64,000 bases of DNA from an uncultured virus (IMG/VR IMGVR_UViG_3300024503_000494) (taxonomy: Duplodnaviria; Heunggongvirae; Uroviricota; Caudoviricetes). The stretch covers positions 1 to 64,000 of the IMG/VR virus record IMGVR_UViG_3300024503_000494. One strand, given 5' to 3'. A program made the position numbers and the translations under genes. Below, piece after piece: positions 35,800 to 55,409 of this stretch (positions are counted from its first letter, which is position 1; every line of letters starts with the position of its first letter). The notes under the pieces are model-generated. The model had not been told where the DNA came from, did no database searches, and saw only the letters and a list, made by a program, of their open reading frames with translations.

Positions 35800-36255
35800 A
35801 TGAATTGGTATGATCGAGTTTCAAAGGATATTTCAAATATTCCAGATGCTGTGGCTTATTATGAAGCCCAATTAACTGAGGCAAAACAAGATGCCCGTAT
35901 AGCGGGGAACATCGAGAAAGCGTCTGCGCAGATGCCCGGCATTGTTGAAAATCGATTTAATCAACTTCAAGAAATTGAAGCAATTTTAGAATACCTAAAC
36001 ATTGAACTTCGTCGGCTTCGTAGTCAACATTTTCGTAAGTATCTTGAAAACTATCAACGTAGCCTCTCCTCTAGAGATTGTGAAAAATTTGTAGAGGGCG
36101 AGGCCGACGTTGTAGACTTTGAAAAAATTATCAATGACTTTGCCCTACTTAGAAATAAGTGGTTGGGTATTATCAAAGCATTAGATCAAAAACAATGGCA
36201 TCTAAGCAACATTGTTAAACTACGTGTAGCTGGTTTAGAAGACGCTACTCTTTAA
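35800..36255 (+). CDS. uvsY: Recombination mediator UvsY-like
   Basis: Helical; K.VEGE.D, LD.KQW...NIVKLRVAGLED; position after uvsX. Confidence 0.8.
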   Translation: MNWYDRVSKDISNIPDAVAYYEAQLTEAKQDARIAGNIEKASAQMPGIVENRFNQLQEIEAILEYLNIELRRLRSQHFRKYLENYQRSLSSRDCEKFVEGEADVVDFEKIINDFALLRNKWLGIIKALDQKQWHLSNIVKLRVAGLEDATL

Positions 36256-37900: not shown

Positions 37901-37948
37901 AGAAATATTTATCGACTAAATATGAGCAGTTAATAGAATTGGACTACA

Positions 37949-38689
37949 ATGCGATCTTTTAGAGTAGTGACTACACAACATAAACCTTACTATGACCTTA
38001 TCGGTAAGGAATGTATTCAATCCTTTTTGAAATATTGGCCTAAAGAGGTTTCAATCGAATTATGGGCAGAAAATTTTGAACCCGACATAACAGACCCTAG
38101 ATTAATAATTAAAGATTTTAATAAAATAAATCCTAGATTTGAAAACTTTAAACAATTAATGTTTTCGTCAACAACAAATGACAAAGTATTATCTAAGAAA
38201 ACATTTTGGCTAAAAGGACACGTAGTTTTAACAGCTCTTGAAACTTTTGATTCCGATGTGTTTATATGGTTAGACAGTGATGTAATAACTCATAATTATG
38301 TTACCATTGAATATTTGAATTCTTTAATTCCAGAAGACACATTAGCTGTTGATGTTCCTGCAGGAGGAAAAGGTCGTGATAAAGAAGCAGAAACAGGATT
38401 TTTTGGATTAAATCTAAAAATGAAAGAATCAAAATCTGTTATCGATTACTATAGAGAATATCATACAACACTAAAAATGTTAGATACACCTAGATATATG
38501 GAAACATCCGTATGGTGGTCGGCTATAAAAAATTCAGGTGCAAAAGCTAATCATTTAAAAACATCTAAGGATCATTTGATGCCGTTTATGTATACTGAAT
38601 TAGCTCAATATATGCGTCATTGGGTAGCACAAAAAAATAAGGCTAATTATTCTAAAGGCAGCAGAGAAAAAACTCAGGAAGAACAATGA
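37949..38689 (+). CDS. Putative GT-A glycosyltransferase, paralog A1
   Basis: VVTT..YY...GK..I.SFLKYWP; FWLK; IWLDSDV DxD motif; ETGF. Confidence 0.65.
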   Translation: MRSFRVVTTQHKPYYDLIGKECIQSFLKYWPKEVSIELWAENFEPDITDPRLIIKDFNKINPRFENFKQLMFSSTTNDKVLSKKTFWLKGHVVLTALETFDSDVFIWLDSDVITHNYVTIEYLNSLIPEDTLAVDVPAGGKGRDKEAETGFFGLNLKMKESKSVIDYYREYHTTLKMLDTPRYMETSVWWSAIKNSGAKANHLKTSKDHLMPFMYTELAQYMRHWVAQKNKANYSKGSREKTQEEQ

Positions 38690-39264
38690 AATCAACAGCC
38701 CAAGCATATCAAGATTTATTCGTATATTCTTTATTCGGTAATAATGGAACATACATTGAAGTTGGTGCTCATAAACCAATAAAAAACAGTAACACTTATA
38801 ATTTAGAAGTAACGTGCGGCTGGAAAGGATTTGGCATAGAATTCAATGATTCTTTAAAAGAGTTTTGGGAAAAATCTCCTGAAAGAAAAAATAAAATTTA
38901 TTGGGAAGATGCATTGACATTTAATTACATCAATGCATTAACAGAAAATCTTTTACCAACACACATAAATTATTTGTCTTGTGATATAGAACCTCCAGAA
39001 AATACATTTAATGCTCTTAAGAATATTGTTGGTCAAGGAATTACTTTTGATATAATTACATTTGAACACGATTTATATAATTCAACAGTTGACTATAATT
39101 TAATTGCTACTGAGTTTTTATTAAACAACGGGTATAAAGTAGCAGTTACCGATGTATATTATAAAAAAGAAGAAAATTTATTCGAAACATGGTTTTTAAA
39201 AGACAACATAGAATTTAAAACTTGTTCGTTTAATGAATGGAAAGAAAGAACAAATTTGTTATGA
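38686..39264 (+). CDS. FkbM-like SAM methyltransferase
   Basis: AQAYQD.FV, YIEVGA, SNT..LE, W.G.GIE, YLSCDIE, ITFEHD. Confidence 0.75.
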   Translation: MKSTAQAYQDLFVYSLFGNNGTYIEVGAHKPIKNSNTYNLEVTCGWKGFGIEFNDSLKEFWEKSPERKNKIYWEDALTFNYINALTENLLPTHINYLSCDIEPPENTFNALKNIVGQGITFDIITFEHDLYNSTVDYNLIATEFLLNNGYKVAVTDVYYKKEENLFETWFLKDNIEFKTCSFNEWKERTNLL

Positions 39265-40022
39265 AAAAAATTGTTTTAATTACCGGAGGCTTTGATCCTC
39301 TACATTCTGGTCATATTGCTTATTTTAAAGCAGCAAAGGCATTGGGTGATATTTTAGTTGTAGGCGTAAATTCTGACGCTTGGCTAACACGCAAAAAAGG
39401 TGCTCCTTTTATGCCTTATATGGAACGTGCATCAATTGTACGGAATATAGTTGGTGTAGATTTTGTTATAGACTTTAATGACAGTGACGGTAGTGCTAAA
39501 CACGCCATACAAATGGTGCGTCAAAGTTATCCTCAAGAACGTATTATTTTTGCCAACGGTGGAGATAGAACCAAAGAAAATATTCCCGAAATGGACATCA
39601 AAGACGACAACCTAGAATTTGTGTTTGGTGTTGGCGGAGAAGATAAAAAGAATTCTAGTTCTTGGATTTTACAGGAATGGAAAGCACCTAAGACTGAACG
39701 TCAATGGGGTTACTATCGTGTTCTGCACGAAGTTCCTGGAATGAAAGTTAAGGAACTAACAGTTAATCCAGGTTGCAAATTATCAATGCAAAGACATAAG
39801 TATCGTTCAGAATATTGGATAGTGAGTGAAGGTAGAGCCGATGTTAACAAAATGATGGACAGCGGTTACTCGTTGCCGACTGCTAGATTAGAATTGCACG
39901 ACGAAGAAGATATTCCAGTCGGACAATGGCACCAATTAACAAACCCTTACGATGTGCCTTGTAGAATTGTAGAAATTCAATACGGTGAGCGTTGCGAAGA
40001 AGAGGACATAGAAAGAAAATGA
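39261..40022 (+). CDS. Cytidylyltransferase (HxGH) fused to mannose-6-phosphate-isomerase-type cupin
   Basis: GGFDPLHSGH, GVNSD, FANGGDR, KNSSS; R.WG.Y, LSMQRH..RSE.W, EIQYG..C.E.DIER. Confidence 0.85.
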   Translation: MKKIVLITGGFDPLHSGHIAYFKAAKALGDILVVGVNSDAWLTRKKGAPFMPYMERASIVRNIVGVDFVIDFNDSDGSAKHAIQMVRQSYPQERIIFANGGDRTKENIPEMDIKDDNLEFVFGVGGEDKKNSSSWILQEWKAPKTERQWGYYRVLHEVPGMKVKELTVNPGCKLSMQRHKYRSEYWIVSEGRADVNKMMDSGYSLPTARLELHDEEDIPVGQWHQLTNPYDVPCRIVEIQYGERCEEEDIERK

Positions 40023-40699
40023 TTAGAATATTCATTGGGTACGATCCTCGTGAAGCCGTGGCGTTTCACGTGTGTTCGAACAGTATTATTAGACAGGCTA
40101 GTTGCCCTGTTAGTATTACTCCCCTGGCGTTGAATACATTCAATGAGTACAAAGAAACACACAGCGATGGTAGTAATCAATTTATCTACTCTAGATTCTT
40201 AACACCTGCCCTATCGGACTTTATGGGCTGGGCTATATTTGTCGACGGCGATATGATTTTAAGAGATGATATTTTAAAATTATGGAATCTAAGAGACGAG
40301 TCAAAGGCAGTAATGGTAGTCAAACACGACTATAAAACTAAGATGACAGAAAAATATCTAGGCAGTAAGAACGAAGACTATCCTAGAAAAAATTGGTCTA
40401 GTGTTATCTTATGGAATTGCAGCCATCCTAAAAATAGAATCTTAACACCTAACTTCATTGAAAAATCTACAGGTGCACAGCTACATAGATTTACTTGGTT
40501 AGAAGACAATGACATTGGCGAATTGCCTAAAGAATGGAACTGGCTGGATGTCGAATATGATTATAACCCAGATGCAAAATTAGTTCATTATACGTTAGGT
40601 ACACCTTGCTTCCACGAATTTGCACATCAAGGAAGTTTTTCAGGCGAATGGCATCTTGAAAGAATTTATGCAGATTGGTGTCAACAAAGGAATCTATGA
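40019..40699 (+). CDS. GT8-like glycosyltransferase
   Basis: IFIGYDPRE, FIYSRFL, FVDGDM, YPRKNWSS, LPKEWNWL, HYTLGTP. Confidence 0.8.
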   Translation: MIRIFIGYDPREAVAFHVCSNSIIRQASCPVSITPLALNTFNEYKETHSDGSNQFIYSRFLTPALSDFMGWAIFVDGDMILRDDILKLWNLRDESKAVMVVKHDYKTKMTEKYLGSKNEDYPRKNWSSVILWNCSHPKNRILTPNFIEKSTGAQLHRFTWLEDNDIGELPKEWNWLDVEYDYNPDAKLVHYTLGTPCFHEFAHQGSFSGEWHLERIYADWCQQRNL

Positions 40700-41526
40700 A
40701 CAATTGGTTATTTTTAAGCAAAGACGGCCAGGACGAATATATTAATATGTTTGCTATCGGCACCGGAGGAAGAGTGGTGTCGACTGAAGATTTTATCTTT
40801 GAAGATTCCGAAGATCCTATTGTGATGAGAGGAATATTAAAAAAGAAAATAATTCAACAATGCTGGCGTGAACAACGAGATTTTTATTTTATTGACACTG
40901 GATATTTAGGAAATCAAAAAAGTCCTGTAAATCCAATGGGTTGGAAATACTATCATAGAATTGTAAAAAACGATTTGCAATACGAAGGAGATATAATTCC
41001 TAGACCTAATGATAGATTTAAACAGTTAGCTATTCCGATTAGCGATTGGAAAAAAGGCGGAAGAAAAGTTTTAATTGCTGCACCCGATGAAAAACCTATG
41101 AGGTTCTACGGATTAGATCGAGAACAATGGTTGGAAGAAACTATAGAAACAATTAAGAAATATACCGATAGACCGATTGTTGTTAGGGATAGAGTTAAGA
41201 GTAGATTAGATCGTGTAATTCATAATACACTAAAAGAAGCACTCGATGACGATGTTCATTGCCTAGTTACTTTTAATAGTAATTCTGCAACTGAGTCAGT
41301 CCTACACGGAATACCAGCATTTATACTTGCTCCAAGCCATGCGGCTAGTCCAGTAACATTAAGAGACTTAAGCAAGATTGAAAATCCGTATTATGCAGAC
41401 AAGGATAAAGTTTATGCTTGGGCTTGTCATCTAGCATATCTGCAATATCATAACAACGAACTTAGAGATGGTTCTGCAAAAAAGATGTTAGAAGAAACAT
41501 ATGAGTTAATAAAGGAACATAGATGA
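40696..41526 (+). CDS. KpsS/KpsC-like (capsule synthesis) GT-B protein, paralog B1
   Basis: IDTGY, RPIVVR, CLVTFNSNSATESVLHGIP. Confidence 0.6.
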   Translation: MNNWLFLSKDGQDEYINMFAIGTGGRVVSTEDFIFEDSEDPIVMRGILKKKIIQQCWREQRDFYFIDTGYLGNQKSPVNPMGWKYYHRIVKNDLQYEGDIIPRPNDRFKQLAIPISDWKKGGRKVLIAAPDEKPMRFYGLDREQWLEETIETIKKYTDRPIVVRDRVKSRLDRVIHNTLKEALDDDVHCLVTFNSNSATESVLHGIPAFILAPSHAASPVTLRDLSKIENPYYADKDKVYAWACHLAYLQYHNNELRDGSAKKMLEETYELIKEHR

Positions 41527-42206
41527 ACTTAAATTTTATTACCAGTCTTTCTAAAGAATATTGGGAAGGAACAGGAAAATTTTGTCTAAAGACTTGGAAA
41601 AATTTTCCAGGCACAGTGACAGTTTATATCGATCAACAAGAAGGTGACATAGCCTGGATCAATGAACTACCATCATCCTTTGTTAAAAAATTAGTTCGTG
41701 TTCCTAATCTAAATTTAGAAGATAGAGATTCTACAAAAATTAGAAAATTCTGGGGTAAAGCCTGCGCCCAGATATCTGCAATGAGAGAACGAGGTAAAGA
41801 TGAAAGAATAGTTTGGATAGATGCTGACGTTGAACAAACAGCATCCACTTTACCAGAATCTATTTTTTCTTTTAGTTTTATGGAACCAATTGCAATGTTA
41901 AACTCCGGTGACGGCGAAGACTGTTGGGAATCCGGCATAGTTGTTTTTAATCAAACTGCCGATAAGATCGATTTGGTTGTTAGAAAATATGAAAATATGT
42001 ATCTAAATCAAGATAACTTGTTTAGTCTATGGAAACCTTACGATGCACAGGCATTAGGTGCTGTGGCAATGGAAAGAGGATTTTTAAATTTATGCAAGAA
42101 AAAATGTCCTAATGCAGAAGCATTAGCTAATAGTCACTTTGCTCCATATTTTAAACATTGGATTAATAAAGATAATAAAAAATTATTAATTGAAAAGAAT
42201 AAATGA
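41523..42206 (+). CDS. Putative GT-A glycosyltransferase, paralog A2
   Basis: FITS..YW...GK; KFWGK; IVWIDADV; ESG. Confidence 0.6.
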   Translation: MNLNFITSLSKEYWEGTGKFCLKTWKNFPGTVTVYIDQQEGDIAWINELPSSFVKKLVRVPNLNLEDRDSTKIRKFWGKACAQISAMRERGKDERIVWIDADVEQTASTLPESIFSFSFMEPIAMLNSGDGEDCWESGIVVFNQTADKIDLVVRKYENMYLNQDNLFSLWKPYDAQALGAVAMERGFLNLCKKKCPNAEALANSHFAPYFKHWINKDNKKLLIEKNK

Positions 42207-43135
42207 CAACAGTAGCGGTATACCACGGTTCTGTACCAAACAAAAAGAGCCAAGAAAAAATTGATCTTTTAAGATACTTCTCTGAAGGTGCTAGAAGAAC
42301 AGGATCAATAGTCTACGACTATCTTGATCACTCTTATCGACCATCGGATGTGGCCATTATACAAGGTTGGGTCGCTCCCGGTCGGCCAACTGGTAAGCAT
42401 TTACTCTTAAGAAATACTGTTATTCAACAACAACTTAAAAATAAAAGACACGTAATAGGTGTTGACAGCAATTTATTTCTTTATAAAAATAAAGAAAATC
42501 CTTTGCATTATCTCAGATACAGTTTTGATGGAATATTTCCTAATACAGGAATTTATTGTGATACGGAAATTGATCCATTTCGATGGAAAAAAATTAGTCA
42601 TAATTTAAAAATTCAACCTAAAGAGTGGAGAACTAACGGAGACCATATTTTGTTGTTGCTACAAAGAAACGGCGGATGGAGTATGGGAAATCTTGATGTA
42701 CAAGACTGGGCTAACGATGTTATAGCTCAGGTAAGACAATATTCCGATCGACACATAATTATACGACCACATCCTGGAGATAAAGATGCTATAAATTATC
42801 TTAATCCTAGACTAGGTAGATGTAAAATTAAATTTTCTAAAAGAATCACTCTTAGCTATAATAAAAATTTAGAAGATGATTTAGTAGATTGTTGGGCAGC
42901 AATTAATTATAATTCAAGTCCTGCTGTAGGAGCAGCGATTGAAGGTGTTCCTATTTTTGTAATGGATCCTGCCCGTAGTCAGTGCGCAGAAATTGCTAAT
43001 ACTGATTTATCTCAAATTGAAAATCCACAAATGCCCTATAGAGACAGATGGCTTGAACGATTAGCCATGTTTCATTGGAATTTTGACGAACTAAGATCCG
43101 GCGAATGCTGGAGCCATATGAAAAAATTTATATGA
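42203..43135 (+). CDS. KpsS/KpsC-like GT-B protein, paralog B2
   Basis: IIIRPHPGD, INYNSSPAVGAAIEGVP. Confidence 0.6.
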   Translation: MTTVAVYHGSVPNKKSQEKIDLLRYFSEGARRTGSIVYDYLDHSYRPSDVAIIQGWVAPGRPTGKHLLLRNTVIQQQLKNKRHVIGVDSNLFLYKNKENPLHYLRYSFDGIFPNTGIYCDTEIDPFRWKKISHNLKIQPKEWRTNGDHILLLLQRNGGWSMGNLDVQDWANDVIAQVRQYSDRHIIIRPHPGDKDAINYLNPRLGRCKIKFSKRITLSYNKNLEDDLVDCWAAINYNSSPAVGAAIEGVPIFVMDPARSQCAEIANTDLSQIENPQMPYRDRWLERLAMFHWNFDELRSGECWSHMKKFI

Positions 43136-43881
43136 AAAAGATTTCTGTTATTACAAGTTTTAACGAAAAATATTATGAGTTAATTGGCAAATATTGTGTT
43201 GCTACATTTTTAAAAAATTGGCCAACTGACATTAATTTAACCTGTTACGTGGAAGAAATGTCATTAACTCCCGATCCACGTATTATACAAATTCCTTTTA
43301 CAGAACTTCCTGTTGAATATTTTGATTTGCAAAAAACAAAATTTAAACAAAGAGTAAAAACTTTTTCTAAAAAAGGTTATTCTGTAATTCACGCTATGGA
43401 AAACATAGATTGCGATCTATTAATATGGATTGATTCTGATGTATTAACACATACAGCGGTTCCTAGAGAATTTTTAGAAAATTTATGTTCGTCTAAAGAT
43501 CTAACTACGTTTATGGGTGTATGGCACGAAGCAAATGACAAAGAATATTTCAGTTGTGAATCAAGTTTTTTTGTTGTAAACAAAACTCATCAAAATTTTT
43601 CATTATTTTCAAAGAGATATCGTGAATATTATGATAATCGATTAACTGAGAATTTAAGAAGATTCTATGACGGTGAAGTCCTTGGAGCAACTATTAAAGA
43701 TTTAGAAAAATTAGGAGGTATGAATGAAATTAATCCTAACTTTCACAAAACTCCGATGCCAAGAACCATACTAAAAGATTATTTTACTCATTTTAAGGCA
43801 GGACTAAAAGAAGATGATGACCTTGATACGAGTATTGAAGAATTAATTGGCAATATTCAAACTGTTCCAGTTTGCCAATAA
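43132..43881 (+). CDS. Putative GT-A glycosyltransferase, paralog A3
   Basis: VITSF..YY...GK....FLKNWP; FSKK; IWIDSDV; ESSF; HFKA. Confidence 0.65.
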   Translation: MKKISVITSFNEKYYELIGKYCVATFLKNWPTDINLTCYVEEMSLTPDPRIIQIPFTELPVEYFDLQKTKFKQRVKTFSKKGYSVIHAMENIDCDLLIWIDSDVLTHTAVPREFLENLCSSKDLTTFMGVWHEANDKEYFSCESSFFVVNKTHQNFSLFSKRYREYYDNRLTENLRRFYDGEVLGATIKDLEKLGGMNEINPNFHKTPMPRTILKDYFTHFKAGLKEDDDLDTSIEELIGNIQTVPVCQ

Positions 43882-44672
43882 CTTTCTTTTCTTCTAACCT
43901 TTAGATCTTGAGGCTTACTACGGCCTAGATCTTTTCTACCGCCTTTCAAATGGTCAAGATATGCTCCCCATTCACTGTTAATCAGCGGATGACCTTCTCC
44001 AGTGATAAGATGGCTGCTCCAATCTAATTCATTTAAGGTTGAATTTCGTCGTACGACATCAAATACAAAACTATCATGCCATTCTTCTAAGGTAAAAATT
44101 CCTAATTCTGCACAATCGTACATCCATTGAAATTTTTCTAAGAATTTTTGAACAGCAGGTGAACGCAAATTCATTGCGTAAAGGCCACATTCACTAAATT
44201 TTCCTTTTCTTCCAAGAAAACACAAATCTTTGTCTGCCGGAATTAGACGTTGAATTGTTTCCATGGTAATTGGACTATGACAAATGGTATCTGCGTCCAT
44301 CCAAACTAAAATATCTGCGTCAGTTTCCTTAGCACAGTGAAAAATTGCATAGACTTTGTGGGCAAATCTAACAGCATCCCATTTAAAACCTTTGCCAGCA
44401 TCTTTTCTTCGACTTCGAATAGGATCTGCTGATACATCGCCGTTAGCCTTGGGAACATTTTTCCACTTTTCTTTAAATTTCATAAGCTCTTCAACTTCTT
44501 CAAGGCGTTTTAATGTCACGTGATTGTGATTTCGTATTGCAGGATTACAAAGTTCTGGATAAATGTGAAGGGTGACCTCTTCTGGCCACTTTTCACAAAA
44601 ACTATCTATCATTTTTTGGCCGTATTTTGCACGACCCGCATCATTAAAAGTTGTTACCACTGCATATTTCAT
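43857..44672 (-). CDS. Putative GT-A glycosyltransferase, paralog A4
   Basis: VVTTF....YG..MI.SF..WP; RFAHKV; VWMDADT; ECG; WHDS; HLKG. Confidence 0.7.
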   Translation of the reverse strand: MKYAVVTTFNDAGRAKYGQKMIDSFCEKWPEEVTLHIYPELCNPAIRNHNHVTLKRLEEVEELMKFKEKWKNVPKANGDVSADPIRSRRKDAGKGFKWDAVRFAHKVYAIFHCAKETDADILVWMDADTICHSPITMETIQRLIPADKDLCFLGRKGKFSECGLYAMNLRSPAVQKFLEKFQWMYDCAELGIFTLEEWHDSFVFDVVRRNSTLNELDWSSHLITGEGHPLINSEWGAYLDHLKGGRKDLGRSKPQDLKVRRKESYWQTGTV

Positions 44673-45067
44673 TTTCTTTTTTCCCAAACGTGAAATTTTT
44701 TATCAACCGAGGTGCATACCCAGCCTGTATTGTATAGAGCCTTCATTGTTTTTTTGTCTACTATAGAATTTCCTTCGACTATTACAACAGATTTAAATCT
44801 TGTCCAAAAATTATTCAATTTTTCCAGCCTATCTATTTTATCTAGGTTAAAGTATATGGCCTTTATTTCATATAATGTTTCAATATAGTCAAAATTTTCT
44901 CTATAAATTAATTTTTTTGATTTTAAAGATCTATCTTCTGCTTCTATTATAAAAGTTGTGTTATGTAAAGACACTATGTCCTGCAACATTCCAAAACCGT
45001 CACCAATTACCAAAGCATTTTCTGCTCTGCCAATAATTTTTTTGATCTTTTTTTCAAACGAGGCCAT
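44669..45067 (-). CDS. Hypothetical (possible degenerate methyltransferase fold)
   Basis: NALVIGDGFG; ATGA-coupled to paralog A4. Confidence 0.5.
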   Translation of the reverse strand: MASFEKKIKKIIGRAENALVIGDGFGMLQDIVSLHNTTFIIEAEDRSLKSKKLIYRENFDYIETLYEIKAIYFNLDKIDRLEKLNNFWTRFKSVVIVEGNSIVDKKTMKALYNTGWVCTSVDKKFHVWEKRK

Positions 45068-45101
45068 AAATTAATTAAATACTCTGATATTTATTACTCC
45101 T

Positions 45102-45926
45102 ATGCGCTTCAAACTTTATCGTGAATACGGTGCCTTAAACAGCGCACCAATTTTTAATGCAGTCGAACAAGGACTGCGTTCACTTGGCCACGAAATTGTT
45201 AATAAAGACGAAGACATACCGGTAATTTGGTCAGTTTTATGGTCAGGCAGGATGAAAAACAATCAAGCCATATATCATAATGCTATAAAAAATAAAAAAT
45301 CTGTTTTAATTATAGAAGTTGGAAATTTAAAAAGGAACGAGACCTGGAGAATTTCTTTAAACCATATAAACGGATTAGGCGTTTTTAATAATCTTACAAA
45401 TTTAGACTCCTCGAGACCAGGAAAATTAGGTATAGAATTAAAATCTCCTCCTAACAAAACAAGAGGAGAGATACTAGTGGCTTGCCAACATCAAGAAAGT
45501 CTTCAATGGGAAGGTATGCCAACTATGGCAGAATGGTGTAAGGATACGATTTCTAAAATTAGACGGCACTCACAGCGCAGGATTATAGTTAGACCACATC
45601 CAAGGTCTCCATTTCCGTTTAGTGTGCCTAATGTAATATTAGAGAGGCCTAGACATATTCCAAACACCTATGATAATTTTGATATTTTTTACAACTATCA
45701 TTGCGTGATTAATTATAATGCAGGACCGTCTGTTCAAGCTCCTATAAATGGGATTCCCGTGCTCTGTGATTCTTCTAGCCTAGCTGGCGAATTAAGCATT
45801 AAATGGGAAAATCTTGAAAATCCCACATTGCCAGATAGAGAAGAATGGTTTCTCAAACTCTGCCATACCGAATGGACTGTTGACGAAATAAGTCAAGGTA
45901 TTCCTTTGGCAAGATTGTTCGGTTGA
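45102..45926 (+). CDS. KpsS/KpsC-like GT-B protein, paralog B3
   Basis: IEVG, IIVRPHPR, CVINYNAGPSVQAPINGIP. Confidence 0.6.
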   Translation: MRFKLYREYGALNSAPIFNAVEQGLRSLGHEIVNKDEDIPVIWSVLWSGRMKNNQAIYHNAIKNKKSVLIIEVGNLKRNETWRISLNHINGLGVFNNLTNLDSSRPGKLGIELKSPPNKTRGEILVACQHQESLQWEGMPTMAEWCKDTISKIRRHSQRRIIVRPHPRSPFPFSVPNVILERPRHIPNTYDNFDIFYNYHCVINYNAGPSVQAPINGIPVLCDSSSLAGELSIKWENLENPTLPDREEWFLKLCHTEWTVDEISQGIPLARLFG

Positions 45927-45951
45927 CTTTCATATCTGCCTGTTATATAAT
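45923..45951 (+). promoter_or_regulatory. Sigma70-type promoter
   Basis: TTGACT-N17-TATAAT, ATG 6 nt later. Confidence 0.8.
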
Positions 45952-45957
45952 AATTAA

Positions 45958-47145
45958 ATGTTAAGCTCTGTGTATGCCGAAGACATTTTTCTTCGTTTTT
46001 ATACTCTTGTTCAATCTGGTCAACTACACGTTCAGCACCAGGACTTCTCGCCTATTCTTAGTTTTCACGAGAAAATTTCCAATGACAGCGAACTAACAAA
46101 AAATCAAGCTAACTACATTTTAAAAATATTAGAAAAATACAAAAATGTATCGGCATTATTGGGTTTTGATTACAAAGACGCATTGTTAACAGCGCAATGG
46201 CAAAGACCTTTTAGAGTACTAGATCTTACAAAAAAAATCTATGTAGAAAACAAAGATGGATCTTTAGAAATTTGTCTAAAATTTCCATATCAATTGAAAA
46301 AAGAGTTTGACGATGAAATAAATGTTAACTTGCCTAATTCAACTAGAGTCAGTCATTGGGATCAAGAAGACAAAGTTCGACGTTTAAAATTTTACGAATA
46401 CAACTTGATCAGTCTATATGAATTTGCTAATAAACACAACTTTGTAATTGACGACAGTTTTATGAGTGTGTTGTCAGATGTTGAAGAAATATGGCAAAAT
46501 TCAGACAACATTATTCCCTGTTCGGAAATAATTAATTCAAAAGTTGAATTAGTAAATGCTGATCCAGAAACCGAAGAATGGTGGTCAAATACTCGCACCG
46601 AATCATTAAACAATGATTTATTACTGGCTAAGAGTATGGGATTTCCATTGAAAAAAAATCCGGTAAGTTTAGTAGAAAAAATAGCATCTTCGTCTGAAAA
46701 TTTATTCTGGATTAAAAATGTTCAAGATTTCTTTAACATTAGCACTACCGTTAAAGGCAGAGTCTGTATAATTTTAGATAGAACATCTGACACACTAAAA
46801 TGGTTACAAGAATTTGTAAAAGCAGCTGATCAAAATAGTGTTCCTAGAGAAGAAATTAAGGTATGTTTTAGAGATACTAAAGATTCAAAGACCGGTCTTA
46901 ATGACTGGATTAAACTAGCAGGTGTTGGCGGCAAAGTGGATACTGGAAAATTTTTAATATTTGAATCTAAGCCAGCTAAATGGTTGTTTAAAGATAACCT
47001 TGATGTTAAAATGTTAGTAACAAATAACATTTATCCGCCAACAAGTGTTATTACAAAAGATTGGTTTGATTCTCATCCTTGTGTAATTTATCTAGGTGCA
47101 GCAAAACCAAGCACTCATAAAGGAAGAAAGATTGTCGAATTGTAA
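45958..47145 (+). CDS. Hypothetical protein
   Basis: 395 aa ORF upstream of helicase. Confidence 0.7.
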   Translation: MLSSVYAEDIFLRFYTLVQSGQLHVQHQDFSPILSFHEKISNDSELTKNQANYILKILEKYKNVSALLGFDYKDALLTAQWQRPFRVLDLTKKIYVENKDGSLEICLKFPYQLKKEFDDEINVNLPNSTRVSHWDQEDKVRRLKFYEYNLISLYEFANKHNFVIDDSFMSVLSDVEEIWQNSDNIIPCSEIINSKVELVNADPETEEWWSNTRTESLNNDLLLAKSMGFPLKKNPVSLVEKIASSSENLFWIKNVQDFFNISTTVKGRVCIILDRTSDTLKWLQEFVKAADQNSVPREEIKVCFRDTKDSKTGLNDWIKLAGVGGKVDTGKFLIFESKPAKWLFKDNLDVKMLVTNNIYPPTSVITKDWFDSHPCVIYLGAAKPSTHKGRKIVEL

Positions 47146-48586: not shown

Positions 48587-49089
48587 AAATTTTAACATTA
48601 AACAATCAGGCATTTGATTTAAATGACCTGCCCGACGAAGTAGATGAAGACACTAGGTTTAGTGTATTAGATAACAGTAATCCGCAAGAACCTGATTTCT
48701 TTTTTATGCCGTTGATATTCTTAGAATCATTTAACAGTCCTGCTATTTTATTGAATATAGGAGGACACGAAATTCAAATGCCGTTGGATTGGTGTATGGT
48801 AGTAGGAGATAAAGATTGCGGTATGGATCCCGAAGTTCTTCCGTTAACAAGTATTAATGAACGAGGATTTGACGCATTAGTATTCAATCCTATTAAAGGG
48901 TTTAGAGCAGAATTTATGCCAATTGAAATTGTTAATATCTTTCAAGATGTTCGATGGTATTTTCCAAAAATGAAAAACGGACAGTTATTAACAGTTCCGT
49001 TAACTGACGGTGTTAATCCTCCTTGTGTATATTTTGTAAAAGAAGTTAGCCGTCAAAGTGAAGTGTTACAACTACATAAGTTATTATGA
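48583..49089 (+). CDS. Hypothetical beta-rich protein (possible Hint-like fold)
   Basis: 168 aa coupled to uvsW. Confidence 0.6.
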   Translation: MKILTLNNQAFDLNDLPDEVDEDTRFSVLDNSNPQEPDFFFMPLIFLESFNSPAILLNIGGHEIQMPLDWCMVVGDKDCGMDPEVLPLTSINERGFDALVFNPIKGFRAEFMPIEIVNIFQDVRWYFPKMKNGQLLTVPLTDGVNPPCVYFVKEVSRQSEVLQLHKLL

Positions 49090-49304
49090 TGTGGGACGAC
49101 GAGGCGTTTAAGCGGAGATGTATTGGCTGGGTTGATAAGTTTGTTATAATCCCTCGCAAGTGTCACTACACAAGTAAATATTTGTGGTTGAAACGTGCTT
49201 ATCTTGGCACAGCAATGATAACAGGTCCGGGTGAACCTGTATTTGAATATAGATGGTGTGATAAAGATCAATATCTATTTCTTAAAATTAAAGGTATCGT
49301 ATGA
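49086..49304 (+). CDS. Hypothetical protein
   Basis: 72 aa, ATGA-coupled. Confidence 0.6.
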   Translation: MMWDDEAFKRRCIGWVDKFVIIPRKCHYTSKYLWLKRAYLGTAMITGPGEPVFEYRWCDKDQYLFLKIKGIV

Positions 49305-49654
49305 AAGCTGGAAAAGTTTGGGGTGTTACAGAATTATTAGAAGCCAACGGTGTATTAGAGTTTCATCGCATTGAAGCCAAAGCAGGCGGAGTCTGTTCTA
49401 AACATAAACACAAATATAAGTGGAACGGATTCTTTGTTGAAAAAGGAAAGATGATTATTCGTGTATGGAAGAATAATTATGATCTAGTAGATGAAACGCT
49501 ATTAGAGGCTGGACAATATACTAAAGTTGCTCCTGGCGAATATCATCAGTTTGAAGCAATTGAAGACTGTGTTGCTTTTGAATTATATTGGGCAGAATTT
49601 GATCACGACGACATTGAAAGAGAAACTGTGGGGTACAATAATGGGATCGCTTAA
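49301..49654 (+). CDS. Cupin protein
   Basis: KVWG, CSKHKH..KWNGFFV..G, PGEYHQF. Confidence 0.8.
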   Translation: MKAGKVWGVTELLEANGVLEFHRIEAKAGGVCSKHKHKYKWNGFFVEKGKMIIRVWKNNYDLVDETLLEAGQYTKVAPGEYHQFEAIEDCVAFELYWAEFDHDDIERETVGYNNGIA

Positions 49655-49937
49655 ACCAGGAGCAGAATATATCTATGAGCGCCAAGGCGGCACAGTTTAT
49701 GCACGTGAGTTTGGTTCAGACCCGTCAACAAGAGTTGCCATAGGTTGGGATTATGAGCAGGAAACTAATCCGGCAAGGGTCAGAGGATTAGATCAAAAAA
49801 CAGGAAAAGCCGAACTCGACGATCATAATGAATGGATTAAGATCAGGTTAGCCGGAAAAAAGAATCCTACTTTACAAGAGGCTATTGATCGTGTTAAAAT
49901 AATATATCATTTGAGTAAAGACGATGGGCAAAAATAA
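49641..49937 (+). CDS. Hypothetical protein
   Basis: MGSLKPGAEYIYER..GTVYARE; start ATG 49641. Confidence 0.65.
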   Translation: MGSLKPGAEYIYERQGGTVYAREFGSDPSTRVAIGWDYEQETNPARVRGLDQKTGKAELDDHNEWIKIRLAGKKNPTLQEAIDRVKIIYHLSKDDGQK

Positions 49938-50403
49938 ACACGTAGACCTTTTTAAAGATATGATTCCTGCTGTGGATATGGGCTTAAAAGAGCTTTGGGA
50001 TGCCGCCACTGAAGAAGGTCGTAAAGAGATCAAAGGCGACCTGTGGAATCTTAATCGCTATATTAGTAATGTAAAAAGTAACAATTCAGAGTTACAAGAA
50101 CATTACCTAATGACAGTGAATGAATTTTACAATAAGAATTGGGCAGACATTAGTAAGCATCCAAAACTGCAATGGCTTACTCTCGCAATGTGCAGCCATG
50201 AAAGTAAGAAAACACAATTCCACGAGTGGTTACCGTTAAAACGTGAAAAGAATAAGAAAGAAGAATTTTTAGCAGAACTATTTCCTAATATGAAGAGAGC
50301 AGACATTGAAACACTTGCAGCCATTACCTCAGACAAAGAAATCAAACAATATTGCGAGTCTCTTGGTTGGGATAAAAAAGAAGTCAATGGAATTAAATTA
50401 TAA
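49924..50403 (+). CDS. Putative clamp-loader small subunit (gp62-like)
   Basis: W.LNRY.S, NE..N, HPKLQW, FHEW pattern; replication context. Confidence 0.45.
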   Translation: MGKNKHVDLFKDMIPAVDMGLKELWDAATEEGRKEIKGDLWNLNRYISNVKSNNSELQEHYLMTVNEFYNKNWADISKHPKLQWLTLAMCSHESKKTQFHEWLPLKREKNKKEEFLAELFPNMKRADIETLAAITSDKEIKQYCESLGWDKKEVNGIKL

Positions 50404-51068
50404 ATGTGAATATTGCGGTAAGTTATTTGCCAAAGAAAAAACTTTGGTAGTTCATATTTGCGAACAAAAACGTCGACATCTTAGCAAAAATGAGAAGCAC
50501 GTTCAGATGGGTCTAATGACCTATCAAAAATTCTACGAGATCGCACAAAAAGGGAAAAGTCAAAAATCATTTGACGAATTTGCATCTAGCCCGTACTACA
50601 CCGCTTTTATCAAGTTTGGTAGTTTTATGGTTAATACTGCACCAATACATCCAGACAAATTTATTGAATTTGTAATCAAGAGCGGCGTGAAACTTGATCA
50701 CTGGTGTAGACGAACTCTACGAAACATATGTAAAAGAATTAATTAAAATAGAACCAGCAGACGGAGCCATACAGCGTACAATACAGACTATGATGGACTG
50801 GGGTGAGAAAAACAATTCGTCTTGGGAACATTATTTTGCCTACGTGAATCTTAATCGTGCAACTCACGATATTAAAGAAGGATTGATTAGTCCTTGGGTA
50901 ATTTTAAATACTAAAGAAGGCAAAACAATGCTTCAAAAAATGAACGACGAACAATTAGAAATCGTTGGACAATATATCGATCCTCAGTTTTGGATGCGTA
51001 GATTTAAGTCATTGCCAGCAGACACAGAACTAGTAAAAGATGTTATTAAAGAGGCAAAAATATTATGA
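50387..51068 (+). pseudogene. Zn-finger protein gene interrupted by a frameshift near 50709
   Basis: MELNYKCEYCGK..H.C...H...KLDHWCR continues as DELYETYV... in another frame; second half lacks a good start. Confidence 0.65.
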
Positions 51069-51253
51069 AAGACAATGAAGAATATATTTCAAGAGATGAT
51101 CTTGATATTGAAGTTATGAGCACCTCTGATGAAGAGCCCTGCGTTTATGTTAAATTTTCAAATTTTGCAGACGCTGAAGATGCAGAAGAATATGCAGATT
51201 TTTTAGCAGAAACATTACCTCTATTGTTATTTGAAACTACTAGGATGCAATAA
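51065..51253 (+). CDS. Small acidic hypothetical protein
   Basis: 62 aa, ATGA-coupled. Confidence 0.6.
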   Translation: MKDNEEYISRDDLDIEVMSTSDEEPCVYVKFSNFADAEDAEEYADFLAETLPLLLFETTRMQ

Positions 51254-51254
51254 T

Positions 51255-51833
51255 ATGCCTGATATCGATATTGACTTTGTTGATAGAGACAATGCCTTAA
51301 AACACTTTAAACACGTTAAGGCAAGTCGTATTGACGACGGAAAATTAGTCAAGCACAATACGGGCGTGTATATGCACGAAGTACCTATGAGTTCCCTCGA
51401 AGCAGTATGTGCGGTACCTTACGACAAAGCAGAAGAACAGGGTTATTTTAAAATTGACTTTTTGAATGTAGGTTTATACAAAGGTGTTCGAGACGAAGAA
51501 CATCTTGTACAATTAATGAACACGGAGCCACTATGGGATCTTCTAGAGCAAGACGATTTCGTCAACTTACTCTTTCACGTAAACGGGCATGGTTCTATAT
51601 TAAGGCAAATGAAGCCGACGAGTGTGGAACAACTGGCGGCCATTCTAGCAATGATACGCCCAGCGAAACGTTATCTGATTGGCAAAGATTGGACTACGGT
51701 GATGACGGAAGTTTGGACGAAACCGGAGAATGACGAATACTATTTTAAAAAATCACACGCTACAGCGTATGCGGTAGCTATTGTGGTTCAGATGAATTTA
51801 ATCTGCGAAGGTATTAGTTACGGATTTAGTTAA
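51255..51833 (+). CDS. dnaE: Miniature DNA polymerase III alpha (C-family) catalytic fragment
   Basis: MPDIDIDF, KHNTGVY, YFKIDFLNV, LAMIRP, YYFKKSHATAYA; 192 aa. Confidence 0.85.
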   Translation: MPDIDIDFVDRDNALKHFKHVKASRIDDGKLVKHNTGVYMHEVPMSSLEAVCAVPYDKAEEQGYFKIDFLNVGLYKGVRDEEHLVQLMNTEPLWDLLEQDDFVNLLFHVNGHGSILRQMKPTSVEQLAAILAMIRPAKRYLIGKDWTTVMTEVWTKPENDEYYFKKSHATAYAVAIVVQMNLICEGISYGFS

Positions 51834-52201
51834 GAACTTTTTCTGACCAAAGTAATAGATTTTCTTTTAATTCTTTTAACAATGATATCATTTAAACTGG
51901 TACAGGGTCCAAGAATTATTTTAACATCTTTTGTACTAAAGTTTTTAATGACATATTTGAATACAGCAATTTCTTTAAGTAAGAAAATGTTAATAGGAAT
52001 CTGCCTATTAGATTCCCACCACCAGGCTTCGCCCAGTTCTAGAAATCGTTGTTTTTCTGTTTCTGTACGTATTGCAGAGTAGTCGTAAAAGCTAGTTACT
52101 TGTGCATCCTGGTTGATAATGATTCCTACGTACTCTTGATTAACGTGGGTTATAACGCTGATGAACGGAAAGTTTTCTTGTAAGTTAGTTGTTATTCTCA
52201 T
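51830..52201 (-). CDS. Hypothetical protein
   Basis: 123 aa; FPF, EYVGII.N, WWWESNR.IPI. Confidence 0.7.
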   Translation of the reverse strand: MRITTNLQENFPFISVITHVNQEYVGIIINQDAQVTSFYDYSAIRTETEKQRFLELGEAWWWESNRQIPINIFLLKEIAVFKYVIKNFSTKDVKIILGPCTSLNDIIVKRIKRKSITLVRKSS

Positions 52202-52229
52202 TCGATAAATATGCTAAAGGTCCGTAAAA

Positions 52230-53309
52230 ATGCAATTTAATCCAGTTTATTTATACACAAATAAGTTAGACGTATTTACAAGTCCCTCGGACGCTTGGTC
52301 ATCAGAGAGGTATCGTAAAGTGTACAATCGCAATTTAAAAATATATCGTGGTGTTGATAATCGCATTGACATCCAAGTTCGTAATCCCGATCAAAAAGCC
52401 AGTAACATAACTGGTTCTACTTTGGTATTTAATCTAATTTCTAAAGTGACAAAAGATTTAGTATTACAGAAAGATTTTGACACAATGGATTTATCTACAG
52501 GAAAAGTAACAGTAATTTTAACTGACAACGAATTGTTAAACGTTGATAACGGATTCTACGAATATAGTATTGTTAAAGAAATTAGAGAAACAGTTGATTC
52601 AACAGATTACCGAGTAACTTCTAAGATGCCATTGTATGTTGACAGTCAATACGGACCAACTGGGGTTTTAGAAATCCTAGGTGATGTTTATGGAACTGTA
52701 GAAAGCAGTAAGATAATCAATACCTTTAATTACGTCAATCCATTTACACAAGGAGATACTACTCCTGCTTGGTTTGAAAGCGAAATTATAGATGCAAGAC
52801 CGAAAATAAAAACAGGAAATGCCCTACACACATTTCAATTTTACTCTACTAACTACGACGGATCAGTAATCATACAAGGAAGTCTAGACGATCAAGGAGC
52901 ATCGCCTAGGCACGATAAATGGGTCAATATCGATTCTGTAGATCTAACTGTTGAAAGCTATAAAAACATAATTGGTAATTGGAGTTGGTTTAGAATTAAA
53001 CATATTCCTTCGAGGTCATCTAACACAGCTCAATTTGTTATTAGCCAAACAATGTTATTGAATTATCAGGCATCTGTTTACAGCCCAGGTCAAGGATACC
53101 AAATTGGAGACACAATTACTATACCAGGAAATCAATTAGGCGGTGAACTAGGTACTAATGATCTAGTTATTACAGTCACAGGCGTAAGTCCCGGTGGTGC
53201 AATTGTATCTATAGATTGGACAGGTCTTTCTTATAACGGCGTCAAAACTTTTGTTCTTTCTGGCACAACTTCCGGCATTGGAAGTCTTGACAAAGTTCTC
53301 TATAGATAA
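52230..53309 (+). CDS. Putative virion/baseplate protein
   Basis: KIYRGVDN N-terminus; carries one GQGY..GD...G..LGG....ND module; TAAATA upstream. Confidence 0.55.
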   Translation: MQFNPVYLYTNKLDVFTSPSDAWSSERYRKVYNRNLKIYRGVDNRIDIQVRNPDQKASNITGSTLVFNLISKVTKDLVLQKDFDTMDLSTGKVTVILTDNELLNVDNGFYEYSIVKEIRETVDSTDYRVTSKMPLYVDSQYGPTGVLEILGDVYGTVESSKIINTFNYVNPFTQGDTTPAWFESEIIDARPKIKTGNALHTFQFYSTNYDGSVIIQGSLDDQGASPRHDKWVNIDSVDLTVESYKNIIGNWSWFRIKHIPSRSSNTAQFVISQTMLLNYQASVYSPGQGYQIGDTITIPGNQLGGELGTNDLVITVTGVSPGGAIVSIDWTGLSYNGVKTFVLSGTTSGIGSLDKVLYR

Positions 53310-53315
53310 TATACT
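53287..53315 (+). promoter_or_regulatory. Sigma70-type promoter
   Basis: TTGACA-N17-TATACT, ATG 6 nt later. Confidence 0.8.
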
Positions 53316-53321
53316 ATATCT

Positions 53322-54371
53322 ATGACACTAGTCGTAGATAAATTTCGAACGTTACTTCCTCCGCGAGCCAAACACTCGCCGTCTGGTTGGACATCGTTTA
53401 ACGCCCCTTGTTGCCAGCATCGTGGCCATAGTCCCGATACTCGCAAACGTGGTGGTATTAGGTTTGACGGAAATAGTGTAGTTTATAATTGCTTTAACTG
53501 CAAGTTTTCTACAGGCTGGCAACCAGGGGCACCCTTTGGTGAAAAAATGAAAACACTGGCGCGATGGATGGGCGCCAGTGAAGACCTTATAAAAGATCTA
53601 GTGTTTGAAGCTCTTAAAACAGAAGGTCCCGATTATCACGAATATCATTCAGAAGATAACACCCCAATAAATTTTACAGATAAAGCATTACCAGAAGGTG
53701 CGATGCCTTTGGCAGAATGGGGGAATTTAATAGAAGGCGAAGTTGAAGAACAGATTGGTGAAGACTATTCAAACGTATTAAGATATCTAATCAGCAGAGG
53801 ATATAACAATCCATTTGAATATGATTTTTATTGGAGCCCGGCTCCTGGATATATTGATAGAGTTATTGTTCCTTTTAGATGGGAAGGAAGAATAGTAGGA
53901 AATACAGCTAGAAAAGTTAGAGACGGAAAACCAAAATATCTTTCAGATCAACATCCACATTTTGTATTCAACTTTGACCGTCAAAAAGAAAATCAGAAGT
54001 ATATATTTGTCTGCGAAGGTCCATTTGATGCATTGGCAATAGACGGTGTTGCTCTTCTTACTAACGATATAGCTGAACAACAATCTAGGATAATTAATAG
54101 TCTAGGTGCTGAAGTTATTGTAATTCCGGATCAAGATCAAGCAGGACTAGTATTATTTGACAGAGCTGCCGAATTAAATTGGTCAGTGGCTATGCCTAAC
54201 TGGGACGACGATGTAAAAGACGTTGCAGATGCTGTAAAATCCTACGGAAAATTATTTGTTATTGTTGATGCAATAAAGACAGCACAAAAAGGATCGATTA
54301 AAATTAATATGGCTAAGAAGCAACAAGAACACAAATTGGAGAGACTCGAATATGCTAAAGAAAATACTTAA
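53322..54371 (+). CDS. DNA primase (T4 gp61/DnaG-like)
   Basis: Zn finger PCC...CFNC; YL..RG, PKY; TOPRIM VCEGPFDA and PDQD. Confidence 0.9.
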   Translation: MTLVVDKFRTLLPPRAKHSPSGWTSFNAPCCQHRGHSPDTRKRGGIRFDGNSVVYNCFNCKFSTGWQPGAPFGEKMKTLARWMGASEDLIKDLVFEALKTEGPDYHEYHSEDNTPINFTDKALPEGAMPLAEWGNLIEGEVEEQIGEDYSNVLRYLISRGYNNPFEYDFYWSPAPGYIDRVIVPFRWEGRIVGNTARKVRDGKPKYLSDQHPHFVFNFDRQKENQKYIFVCEGPFDALAIDGVALLTNDIAEQQSRIINSLGAEVIVIPDQDQAGLVLFDRAAELNWSVAMPNWDDDVKDVADAVKSYGKLFVIVDAIKTAQKGSIKINMAKKQQEHKLERLEYAKENT

Positions 54372-54468
54372 TATCATTTTATATCCCTACAGAAAATATC
54401 AAGAACATCAAAGATTTAAAAAACGGATCGCTGAATTAAGAAAACGGGATCCTTTCATTTACAAATGA
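54352..54468 (+). CDS. 38-aa basic micro-ORF (not in ORF track)
   Basis: MLKKILNIILYPYRKYQEHQRFKKRIAELRKRDPFIYK*; GGAG RBS; ATGA-coupled to next gene. Confidence 0.75.
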   Translation: MLKKILNIILYPYRKYQEHQRFKKRIAELRKRDPFIYK

Positions 54469-55409
54469 TAAGCTGGGGAATAAACGCACTTAATCACGGC
54501 TCTAGTCTTGCCGTGTTTAAAGACGGAAAATTTATTTCAAATACCTTTGATAAGACTGACACGTTAGATACTAAGACTATTACAACTGCTCTACATCACG
54601 GAGCACCTTCGGATATATTTTGGTACGAAAGGCCTTGGATTAAAAAAGCAAGACAGGCCTATGCAGGTCAATGGCATAGAGTCTTTGATTTTCAAGCAAT
54701 ACCTAGTGCCTATATTAGAAGTATACGTGCTAATTATGCAAAGATGCATTATACTCCGCATCACGCAAGTCACGCTGCCGCTGGTTACTATACCAGTCCA
54801 TTTAACCATTGTGCCATTGTTGTGCTTGATGCGATTGGCGAATGGGAATGCGCTACAATATGGGAAGGTAAACACGGCGAAATGAAAAAAGTATGGAGTA
54901 AGACATATCCTAACAGTTTAGGATTATTTTATTCCGCTTTCACTGAGTTAATAGGGCATACTCCTATTCAAGATGAATTTCTTTTACAAAAAGATGCAGA
55001 ACTAGGCGATCCTAACAAATATTATTTTGATGTAAAAGAATATATGGGCAGCGTTATTAATGCGCATCAAAATATGCATCAAGGCATTTGGAATTGGCCG
55101 TATGAAATTACCAATGAAGACAAGGTACACATTGCCGCTGCCGTTCAGGAAGTGTTTGAAGAACAAATTGATATGGTAATGAAAATTGCCAAAGATTTAA
55201 CAGGAGCCGATTGTCTAGTATATATGGGTGGCTGTGCTATGAATAGTCGAGCAAACAAAAAGGTAGTAGAACCAAAATTTAATTACATTTGGTCATTGCC
55301 GCAACCTGGCGATCCTAGTAGCAGTATTGGCGCTGTACTGTATCACACTAAGCAAAGAGTTTGGGATGCAAACCTTGGGGTTGTAAAACATATCGAGATT
55401 CGTGTATAA
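54465..55409 (+). CDS. Carbamoyltransferase N-terminal (Kae1-like) domain only
   Basis: HHASHAAAGYYTSPF, VLDAIGE, YP.SLGLFYSAFT, GGCAMNS, PGD.SSSIGA; no C-terminal domain. Confidence 0.85.
   Translation: MISWGINALNHGSSLAVFKDGKFISNTFDKTDTLDTKTITTALHHGAPSDIFWYERPWIKKARQAYAGQWHRVFDFQAIPSAYIRSIRANYAKMHYTPHHASHAAAGYYTSPFNHCAIVVLDAIGEWECATIWEGKHGEMKKVWSKTYPNSLGLFYSAFTELIGHTPIQDEFLLQKDAELGDPNKYYFDVKEYMGSVINAHQNMHQGIWNWPYEITNEDKVHIAAAVQEVFEEQIDMVMKIAKDLTGADCLVYMGGCAMNSRANKKVVEPKFNYIWSLPQPGDPSSSIGAVLYHTKQRVWDANLGVVKHIEIRV

Follow-up and report, generated by a model that had tools for sequence, protein, structure and literature searches.

A jumbo-phage gene for the probable C-terminal unit of a split, minimal DNA polymerase III α subunit

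We analysed a 64,000-nucleotide (nt) stretch of DNA from an uncultured virus of the Caudoviricetes (IMG/VR record IMGVR_UViG_3300024503_000494, positions 1 to 64,000; the whole stretch is called the window) and in it a gene at 51255..51833 on the + strand that encodes a protein of 192 amino acids (aa). This gene very probably specifies the C-terminal unit of a split, minimal α subunit of DNA polymerase III (Pol III α; DnaE), the type carried by group 2.2 jumbo myoviruses (Rak2/121Q/PA5oct/Atu_ph07-like). The C-terminal unit is the metal- and template-binding part. An initial annotation of the window had read the gene as one chain of a split, minimal C-family enzyme, and this reading was supported: the other half, which carries the GRGS motif, is a separate gene in complete relatives.

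The gene (protein P0001) is an intact open reading frame (ORF) with its ATG at 51255 and a stop codon that ends at 51833. Use of an upstream TTG at 51231 would extend the protein to 200 aa; the ATG at 51255 is favoured because relatives start with MPDIDIDF and are 191–193 aa long. The initial annotation had listed five DnaE motifs in DnaE order, and all five were found in that order, each on the + strand. PDIDIDF (residues 2–8; 51258..51278) is followed by KHNTGVY (residues 33–39; 51351..51371), which lies on a palm strand (model strand E30–39), by KIDFL (residues 66–70; 51450..51464), by AMIRP (residues 132–136; 51648..51662) and by FKKSHATAY (residues 164–172; 51744..51770). Structural alignment, beginning at residue 400 of Escherichia coli α, equates the aspartates of PDIDIDF with D401, D403 and D405. 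Counted along the profile alignment described below, D68 corresponds to D555, the third catalytic aspartate. AMIRP corresponds to the ...ALFRPG segment that ends at E. coli residue 641, and FKKSHATAY to the F-N-K-S-H-S-A-A-Y segment within 740–767.

Sequence profiles identified the protein as a C-family polymerase fragment. The PHROG profile phrog_11778 ('DNA polymerase') matched at E 1.5e-67 over positions 8–193 of 197, and phrog_405, a DNA polymerase profile of 1190 positions, matched at E 2e-8. A search of PDB sequences with the single sequence gave only weak, collinear matches to DnaE (E 0.3). With a profile of 89 family sequences, nine of nine PDB matches were DNA Pol III α (best E 9.2e-6); residues 53–139 aligned with E. 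coli α 538–641 and residues 151–177 with 740–767. In Pfam, the finger domain PF17657 (DNA_pol3_finger) scored below threshold (14.4 bits against a cut-off of 22). The protein begins at the DxD motif and contains no GRGS motif; PHP (PF02811) gave no Pfam match at E ≤ 1, and no OB or HHH domain was found by Pfam. The lack of PHP, GRGS and OB noted in the initial annotation was thus borne out.

The predicted fold agrees with this identification. The AlphaFold2 model of the 192-aa protein had a mean predicted local distance difference test score (pLDDT) of 96.0 and a predicted template modelling score of 0.88. The best 18 Foldseek matches to it were all C-family polymerases, as were the best 15 rows obtained with VIA-align (Z 9.6–6.0, the next row at Z 3.1), the top range being Z 9.0–9.6 over 185–188 residues. 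Against the E. coli structure 2hnh, residues 1–189 of the model were placed on chain positions 400–781 (Z 9.0, root-mean-square deviation (rmsd) 3.9, 185 residues aligned). The 382 residues of E. coli α 400–781 are compressed to 190, with the thumb and most of the fingers excised and nothing retained past 781. We conclude that the 192-aa protein is homologous to and collinear with DnaE ≈ 400–781 and keeps the three catalytic aspartates as well as the RP and FxKSH finger motifs.

Conservation within the family is centred on these motifs. In the alignment of 89 sequences, with identities down to 30%, D3, D5, K66, D68 and P136 were invariant, and D7, H34, G37, W94, R135, K165 and H168 were at least 90% conserved. 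The claimed retention of three catalytic aspartates therefore holds for D3, D5 and D68. To measure selection, we compared 65 coding sequences, that is, the window and 64 of 80 IMG/VR loci; the remaining 16 loci were dropped because they had no exact 192-codon ORF with the start motif. Synonymous sites were saturated in 1843 of the 2080 pairs. Over the 211 pairs with 0.05 < dS < 1.5, the median ratio of nonsynonymous to synonymous substitution rates (dN/dS) was 0.13 (range 0.047–0.35). The family comprises at least 7980 proteins at E ≤ 0.001, and its top 120 members are 191–201 aa long. Among representatives clustered at 50% identity, 429 clusters matched at E ≤ 0.001, and 149 of the 150 listed were no longer than 219 aa. 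The polymerase gene is under purifying selection and of fixed length, and its evolution is not neutral. Compared with cellular DnaE the protein is a fragment, and it falls below the Pfam cut-off, as a decaying, functionless remnant of a captured full-length DnaE would. The low dN/dS, the invariant catalytic residues and the constant length speak against such a remnant, and no full-length DnaE was present at this position in any relative examined. We regard its probability as practically negligible.

The search for a separate GRGS ORF, which the initial annotation had proposed, was successful in complete relatives. A PF07733 piece was present at a separate locus in three of three isolate genomes (Phosso, Atu_ph07 and 121Q), covering profile positions ≈ 16–98; across isolate and IMG/VR relatives, the piece covered positions ≈ 13–98 with E-values from 8e-13 to 5e-10. 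In the isolates this N-terminal unit is an ORF of 177–180 aa that ends ...GVGRGSSVASY...ELD..EFL, followed by the stop codon. Two of five long IMG/VR records also contained it: G004 (161 aa), a record of 364,554 bases rated 100% complete, and G005 (168 aa), rated 71% complete. In 121Q, where both halves are annotated 'DNA polymerase' (genes 16 and 56), the distance between them is ≈ 31 kb; in G004 it is ≈ 180 kb. In 28 aligned N-terminal units, G127, G129, R130, G131 and S132 were invariant, and all of them stopped at ...EFL[RNKE], which in DnaE order is the point directly before MPDIDIDF. Since the N-terminal unit ends at ...EFL and the C-terminal unit begins directly at MPDIDIDF, there is no space for an intein. 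The N-terminal unit matched PF07733 at E 4.4e-11, and residues 55–147 of its model (pLDDT 77) were superimposed on E. coli α 273–379 with 81 residues aligned (Z 5.4–5.7, rmsd 2.7–2.9). The top seven rows of that comparison were C-family enzymes, and the next had Z 2.1.

The two half-families are equally abundant, with at least 7940 proteins for the N-terminal unit and at least 7980 for the C-terminal unit at E ≤ 0.001. Their distribution over isolate phages, counted by genus, is nearly coincident: Escherichia 34/34, Pseudomonas 11/11, Erwinia 8/8, Salmonella 8/8, Xanthomonas 4/4 and Klebsiella 11/10. The record from which the window is taken (78,913 bases, rated 22% complete) yielded neither a PF07733 match nor a relative of the N-terminal unit, and no family B polymerase (PF00136) or PF00929 match; because the record is a 22%-complete fragment, these blank searches say nothing about the whole phage.

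The genes downstream of the N-terminal unit were also identified. In the G004 stretch L096 531–1983 (− strand), the next gene resembles Cpn10 (GroES) (PF00166, E 6.4e-7), and after it comes a gene for a PRA-PH/MazG-like pyrophosphohydrolase (PF01503, E 8e-10). Judged by eye from the translations alone, Cpn10-like ORFs follow the N-terminal unit in 121Q, Phosso and Atu_ph07 as well.

A natural fusion of the two halves was also found. P0349 (375 aa) joins the N- and C-terminal units in one chain, and its PF07733 match at positions 12–121 runs continuously over the junction (E 4.8e-16); it was the sole such protein among the 150 listed clusters at 50% identity. To predict whether the separate chains could bind each other, we co-folded the window protein with the N-terminal unit of G004 as a stand-in; the C-terminal unit of G004 is 68% identical to that of the window. 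The scores of the three runs were 0.91, 0.91 and 0.90, and the best of three controls scored 0.00. In calibration, 116 of 157 solved complexes and 2 of 215 mismatched pairs attained the mark. The runs shared at least 97% of their contacts, the pLDDT of the partner was at least 88, and the predicted interface places residues 122–135 of the N-terminal unit (the GVGRGS loop) against residues 2–9 of the window protein (PDIDIDF).

Several points weigh against the assignment to a split Pol III α. The fusion P0349 is a singleton from one contig of 2,415 bases and thus a single observation. The co-fold supports predicted binding with a partner borrowed from another phage, and its high score may reflect likeness to solved, intact DnaE rather than binding. 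The N-terminal unit was absent from three of the five IMG/VR records (rated 31%, 56% and 79% complete), and for the phage of the window itself we infer the pairing from relatives. A search of PDB sequences with the profile of the N-terminal unit returned nothing at E ≤ 0.01, and identification of this unit as DnaE is therefore founded on its PF07733 match and its fold match. With the thumb and most of the fingers gone, the enzyme may be unable to hold duplex DNA at all. Finally, our survey of the literature found no biochemical or genetic test of any member of the family. A second candidate for a longer relative was set aside. P0121 (550 aa), the only protein that a word-index search for longer or fused relatives yielded, has an N-terminus with exonuclease and PHP parts of bacterial DnaE type that leads directly into the final 33 residues of the phage mini-DnaE (85% identical). 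It is a singleton from a contig of 17,492 bases and probably stems from a chimeric metagenome assembly across a ...NDEYYFKK-like stretch common to both parts.

The initial annotation had placed possible partners of the protein among its operon neighbours or elsewhere in the genome. The 192-aa protein might accordingly act alone, or together with a small acidic protein and a zinc-finger protein encoded just upstream, the distant GRGS protein being unrelated. The stop of the acidic ORF (62 aa; 51065..51253, + strand) lies one base upstream of the polymerase ATG, suggesting that the two are translationally coupled. Counterparts of 61 aa in G004 and 71 aa in Phosso occupy the same position, and in G004 the end of the ORF and the start of the polymerase ATG share one base (3001). 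The zinc-finger gene (phrog_11058) lies just upstream both here and in G004, and the 192-aa protein is modelled confidently on its own. Against this arrangement, the fold's GRGS loop is missing from the protein, and in DnaE order the end of the N-terminal unit coincides with the start of the C-terminal unit. The halves also occur naturally fused and co-occur by genus counts, and in the co-fold, which scored far above the best control, the GRGS loop sits against the DxD strand. In relatives the GRGS unit is distant rather than in the operon, and we consider action without it highly improbable. A neighbour described as gp62-like, which we take to be a 159-aa ORF, matched only phrog_11758 (unknown function) and had no Pfam match at E ≤ 0.01, which lends no support to a gp62-like identity; no result pointed to a part for this ORF or for the zinc-finger protein in the enzyme. 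Neither PHROG nor Pfam gave a match for the acidic ORF, whose product might serve as an accessory subunit through translational coupling.

The preferred reading of a split Pol III α suggests the following mechanism. The two chains would associate non-covalently to form a single Pol-β-like nucleotidyltransferase palm, to which the N-terminal unit would contribute the triphosphate-binding GRGS loop and the C-terminal unit the two-metal aspartate site together with contacts to the template and the incoming nucleotide. The predicted activity, a template-directed and aspartate-dependent incorporation of deoxynucleoside triphosphates, is drawn from sequence and models. The heterodimer may serve as a short-patch DNA polymerase beside the family B replicase, in repair, gap filling or primer handling. 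Low processivity is proposed because the heterodimer has no PHP, thumb, distal finger, clamp-binding, OB or τ-binding parts, and a role in repair, gap filling or primer handling would fit the position of the gene inside a module of UvsW helicase, primase and DnaB helicase genes.

In relatives, a family B polymerase accompanies the two halves. It was found in three of three isolate genomes (Phosso, Atu_ph07 and 121Q), as an open frame of ≈ 1010 aa in two of them and as two frames in Atu_ph07, and in three of the five IMG/VR records (G003–G005). The search for a gp43-type polymerase suggested by the initial annotation thus led to a family B enzyme in relatives that hold both halves. We also considered a DnaQ-like exonuclease as an obligate third subunit. 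Such an exonuclease is present in 121Q and Atu_ph07 and weakly matched in Phosso; it is absent from G004 and G005, and the candidate was rejected as a general partner.

The main rival explanation is that the heterodimer is a nucleotidyltransferase other than a templated DNA polymerase. On a Pol-β-like palm derived from DnaE, it could act as a terminal transferase or end-tailing enzyme, as a synthase that needs no primer, or as an enzyme that produces a nucleotide signal. For the alternative named in the initial annotation, a repurposed nucleotidyltransferase, the data speak neither for nor against. The Pol-β-like fold is host to many non-polymerase transferases. About half of DnaE 400–781 is gone, including the duplex-gripping thumb and most finger subdomains, there is no clamp-binding, OB or PHP part, and the phages already own a complete family B replicase. 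All this would suit a transferase. Nevertheless, the DnaE finger motifs RP and FxKSH have been kept and are conserved throughout the family, and the gene lies between the UvsW-like helicase and the primase/DnaB helicase genes in all relatives examined. On balance we judge a transferase of this kind unlikely.

The split enzyme is not new. Iyer, Anantharaman, Krishnan, Burroughs and Aravind (2021, Viruses 13:63; PMC7824862), in the parts of the article considered here, describe a split minimal Pol III α in group 2.2 jumbo phages, so the novelty that the initial annotation implied does not stand. Their C-terminal unit is likewise a stand-alone protein of ≈ 190 aa with the Mg-binding aspartate triad and the template-binding part. 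Their GRGS unit, which binds nucleoside triphosphates, is likewise encoded at a distance, and a family B polymerase is present, as seen here in relatives. The phages are also the same: 121Q, PBECO4, GAP32, K64-1, CBB, XacN1, Atu_ph07 and PA5oct. There is no difference in kind; the present copy comes from an uncultured clade that is less than 60% identical to isolates. In the same parts of the article, the authors propose that the split enzyme works together with the family B polymerase, either to synthesize one of the strands or in repair, and speculate that the split minimal form represents the ancestral Pol III core. Compared with what is set out there, the present analysis adds the natural fused form, the metagenomic scale of the family and a co-fold with controls. 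Elsewhere, the sections of the Atu_ph07 paper that we used (PMC6102473) annotate a Pol III α subunit and an ε subunit, and Weinheimer and Aylward (2022; PMC9123017) list, in the portion consulted, PF07733 in 51.9% of the marine jumbo-phage cluster PGC_A.

Cellular DnaE (E. coli 2hnh, Thermus aquaticus 2hpi and 3e0d, Mycobacterium tuberculosis 5lew) and PolC (3f2b) share with the phage form the palm and the three aspartates. The GRGS loop, which in the phage sits on the partner chain, is shared too, as are the finger motifs RP(G) and FNKSH, and all come in the same order. Whereas cellular DnaE is one chain of 1000–1200 aa, the phage form consists of two chains of ≈ 350 aa in total and is without PHP, thumb, distal fingers, β-clamp motif, OB and τ-binding domain; no DnaQ-type exonuclease was found in the complete relative G004. 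Of the hallmarks of cellular DnaE, the 192-aa protein lacks the PHP domain, a GRGS motif in the same chain and a score at the Pfam gathering level. Cyanobacterial DnaE is also encoded by two genes at distant loci, and its halves are joined by protein trans-splicing through a split intein. The phage enzyme differs in that it is split at another site and has no intein-sized segment. A phage-encoded C-family enzyme of another type occurs in group 3.2 jumbo phages such as Bacillus phage G, in which a full-length, host-like DnaE with PHP is described, in the sections of PMC7824862 considered here, as the sole replicase. The type found in the window differs in being minimal and split, with a family B polymerase alongside in relatives.

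The gene is carried by a jumbo myovirus of the type represented by Rak2, 121Q, PA5oct and Atu_ph07. Among the products encoded in the window are tail sheath, tail tube and terminase, a gp32-like single-stranded-DNA-binding protein, UvsX, UvsY, a UvsW-like helicase, a primase and a DnaB-like helicase. Using tblastn against isolate phages, we obtained 96 records that match the protein, every one at less than 60% identity. The records listed are mostly jumbo phages (among them Phosso, Atu_ph07, PA5oct, XacN1, K64-1, GAP32, 121Q, PBECO4, CBB, SCTP-2 and RsoM2USA), plus a few shorter records. A near-identity DNA search of 49000–54500 against isolate phages gave no match. Sequencing runs labelled riverine metagenome contain this stretch, and a relative at 82% identity is labelled Tara. 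A protein identical to that of the window is on record from a contig of 207,869 bases.

Gene order around the polymerase gene is common to the window, E. coli phage 121Q, Sinorhizobium phage Phosso, Atu_ph07, PA5oct and G004. Upstream, a UvsW-like helicase gene is followed by small ORFs with the zinc-finger protein, the small acidic ORF and the polymerase gene; downstream come a convergent ORF of ≈ 120 aa, a gene for a virion protein and then those for primase and DnaB helicase. In the window, the convergent ORF (123 aa; 51830..52201, − strand; phrog_11637, function unknown) overlaps the polymerase stop codon by 4 nt, and its position and orientation are kept in 121Q, Atu_ph07, Phosso, PA5oct and G004.

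The zinc-finger gene of the window, which matches the 239-position profile phrog_11058, is split into overlapping ORFs at 50306–50746 and 50694–51068 (+ strand), with the break near 50707. In the near-identical record G001 (L015) it is a single ORF of 254 codons, compared with which the window is short of two bases of an AGAG repeat; the gene is also intact in L017 and G004. The break reflects either a genuine frameshift or a mistake in assembly. In 121Q and PA5oct, a gene of similar size occupies this position, as judged from annotation alone. Between UvsY and the UvsW-like helicase, the window has a block of ORFs of ≈ 11 kb (36252–47145), at the site of which 121Q carries a DnaQ-like 'DNA polymerase exonuclease subunit' gene. 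Two ORFs of the block match the UDP-glucose dehydrogenase and nucleotide-sugar epimerase families, and three further ORFs gave no match; the scan covered the ORFs outside 39237–45926. Carbamoyltransferase-like genes lie at 4090–5916 and 54465–55409; the latter splits the primase–helicase pair.

Nested within the polymerase gene is an additional ORF of 66 codons that runs from an ATG to a stop codon (51533–51733, + strand, frame +3). Several features speak for a real second gene. The frame was free of stops over at least 60 codons in 44 of 50 distinct homologous coding sequences (68–100% aa identity), compared with a mean of 1.56 and a maximum of 6 in 100 synonymous-codon shuffles. A Met codon was present at the homologous start site in 49 of 50. 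The A of the nested ATG comes from a Leu codon, which was TTA in 25 sequences, CTA in 24 and TTG in 1. GGAG lies 5 nt upstream of the nested ATG. Synonymous diversity in the overlap (0.537) was no lower than in the flanks (0.489 and 0.480), which argues against a nested gene. The frame is open in G004 and G005 and closed in 121Q, PA5oct and Atu_ph07.

Four runs labelled metatranscriptome contained contigs over parts of the polymerase gene with 0–3 differences (e.g. 51139–51440 and 50941–51395). Contigs from RNA libraries are no proof of transcription, and we set them aside as evidence. The PA5oct homologue is a 'hypothetical protein' in GenBank and is without the tandem mass spectrometry note that its neighbour bears; a term search of the main text of the PA5oct omics paper (PMC7318152) found neither 'DNA polymerase' nor 'polymerase III'.

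A more far-reaching proposal, which we consider doubtful, is that the two-chain enzyme of ≈ 350 aa is a self-sufficient templated polymerase, the smallest of the C family and a model of the ancestral Pol III core, that separate expression of its halves acts as a gate and that the nested 66-codon ORF is a gene of the riverine/marine clade. The idea of a gate comes from the location of the halves in different regions, one in the replication module and the other, in G004, beside the Cpn10-like and MazG/PRA-PH-like genes.

With the split minimal Pol III α known since 2021, the remaining question is biochemical and not one of annotation. It concerns a family that is very large in metagenomes, as the numbers for both halves attest. 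Should the pair prove active, it would rank as the smallest DNA polymerase of the C family and would define the minimal catalytic core of the bacterial replicases. It would then offer a tractable system for measuring what the thumb, fingers, PHP domain and clamp contacts contribute, and one would have to ask why giant phages that possess a complete T4-type replisome retain a second polymerase, of bacterial type and in two pieces.

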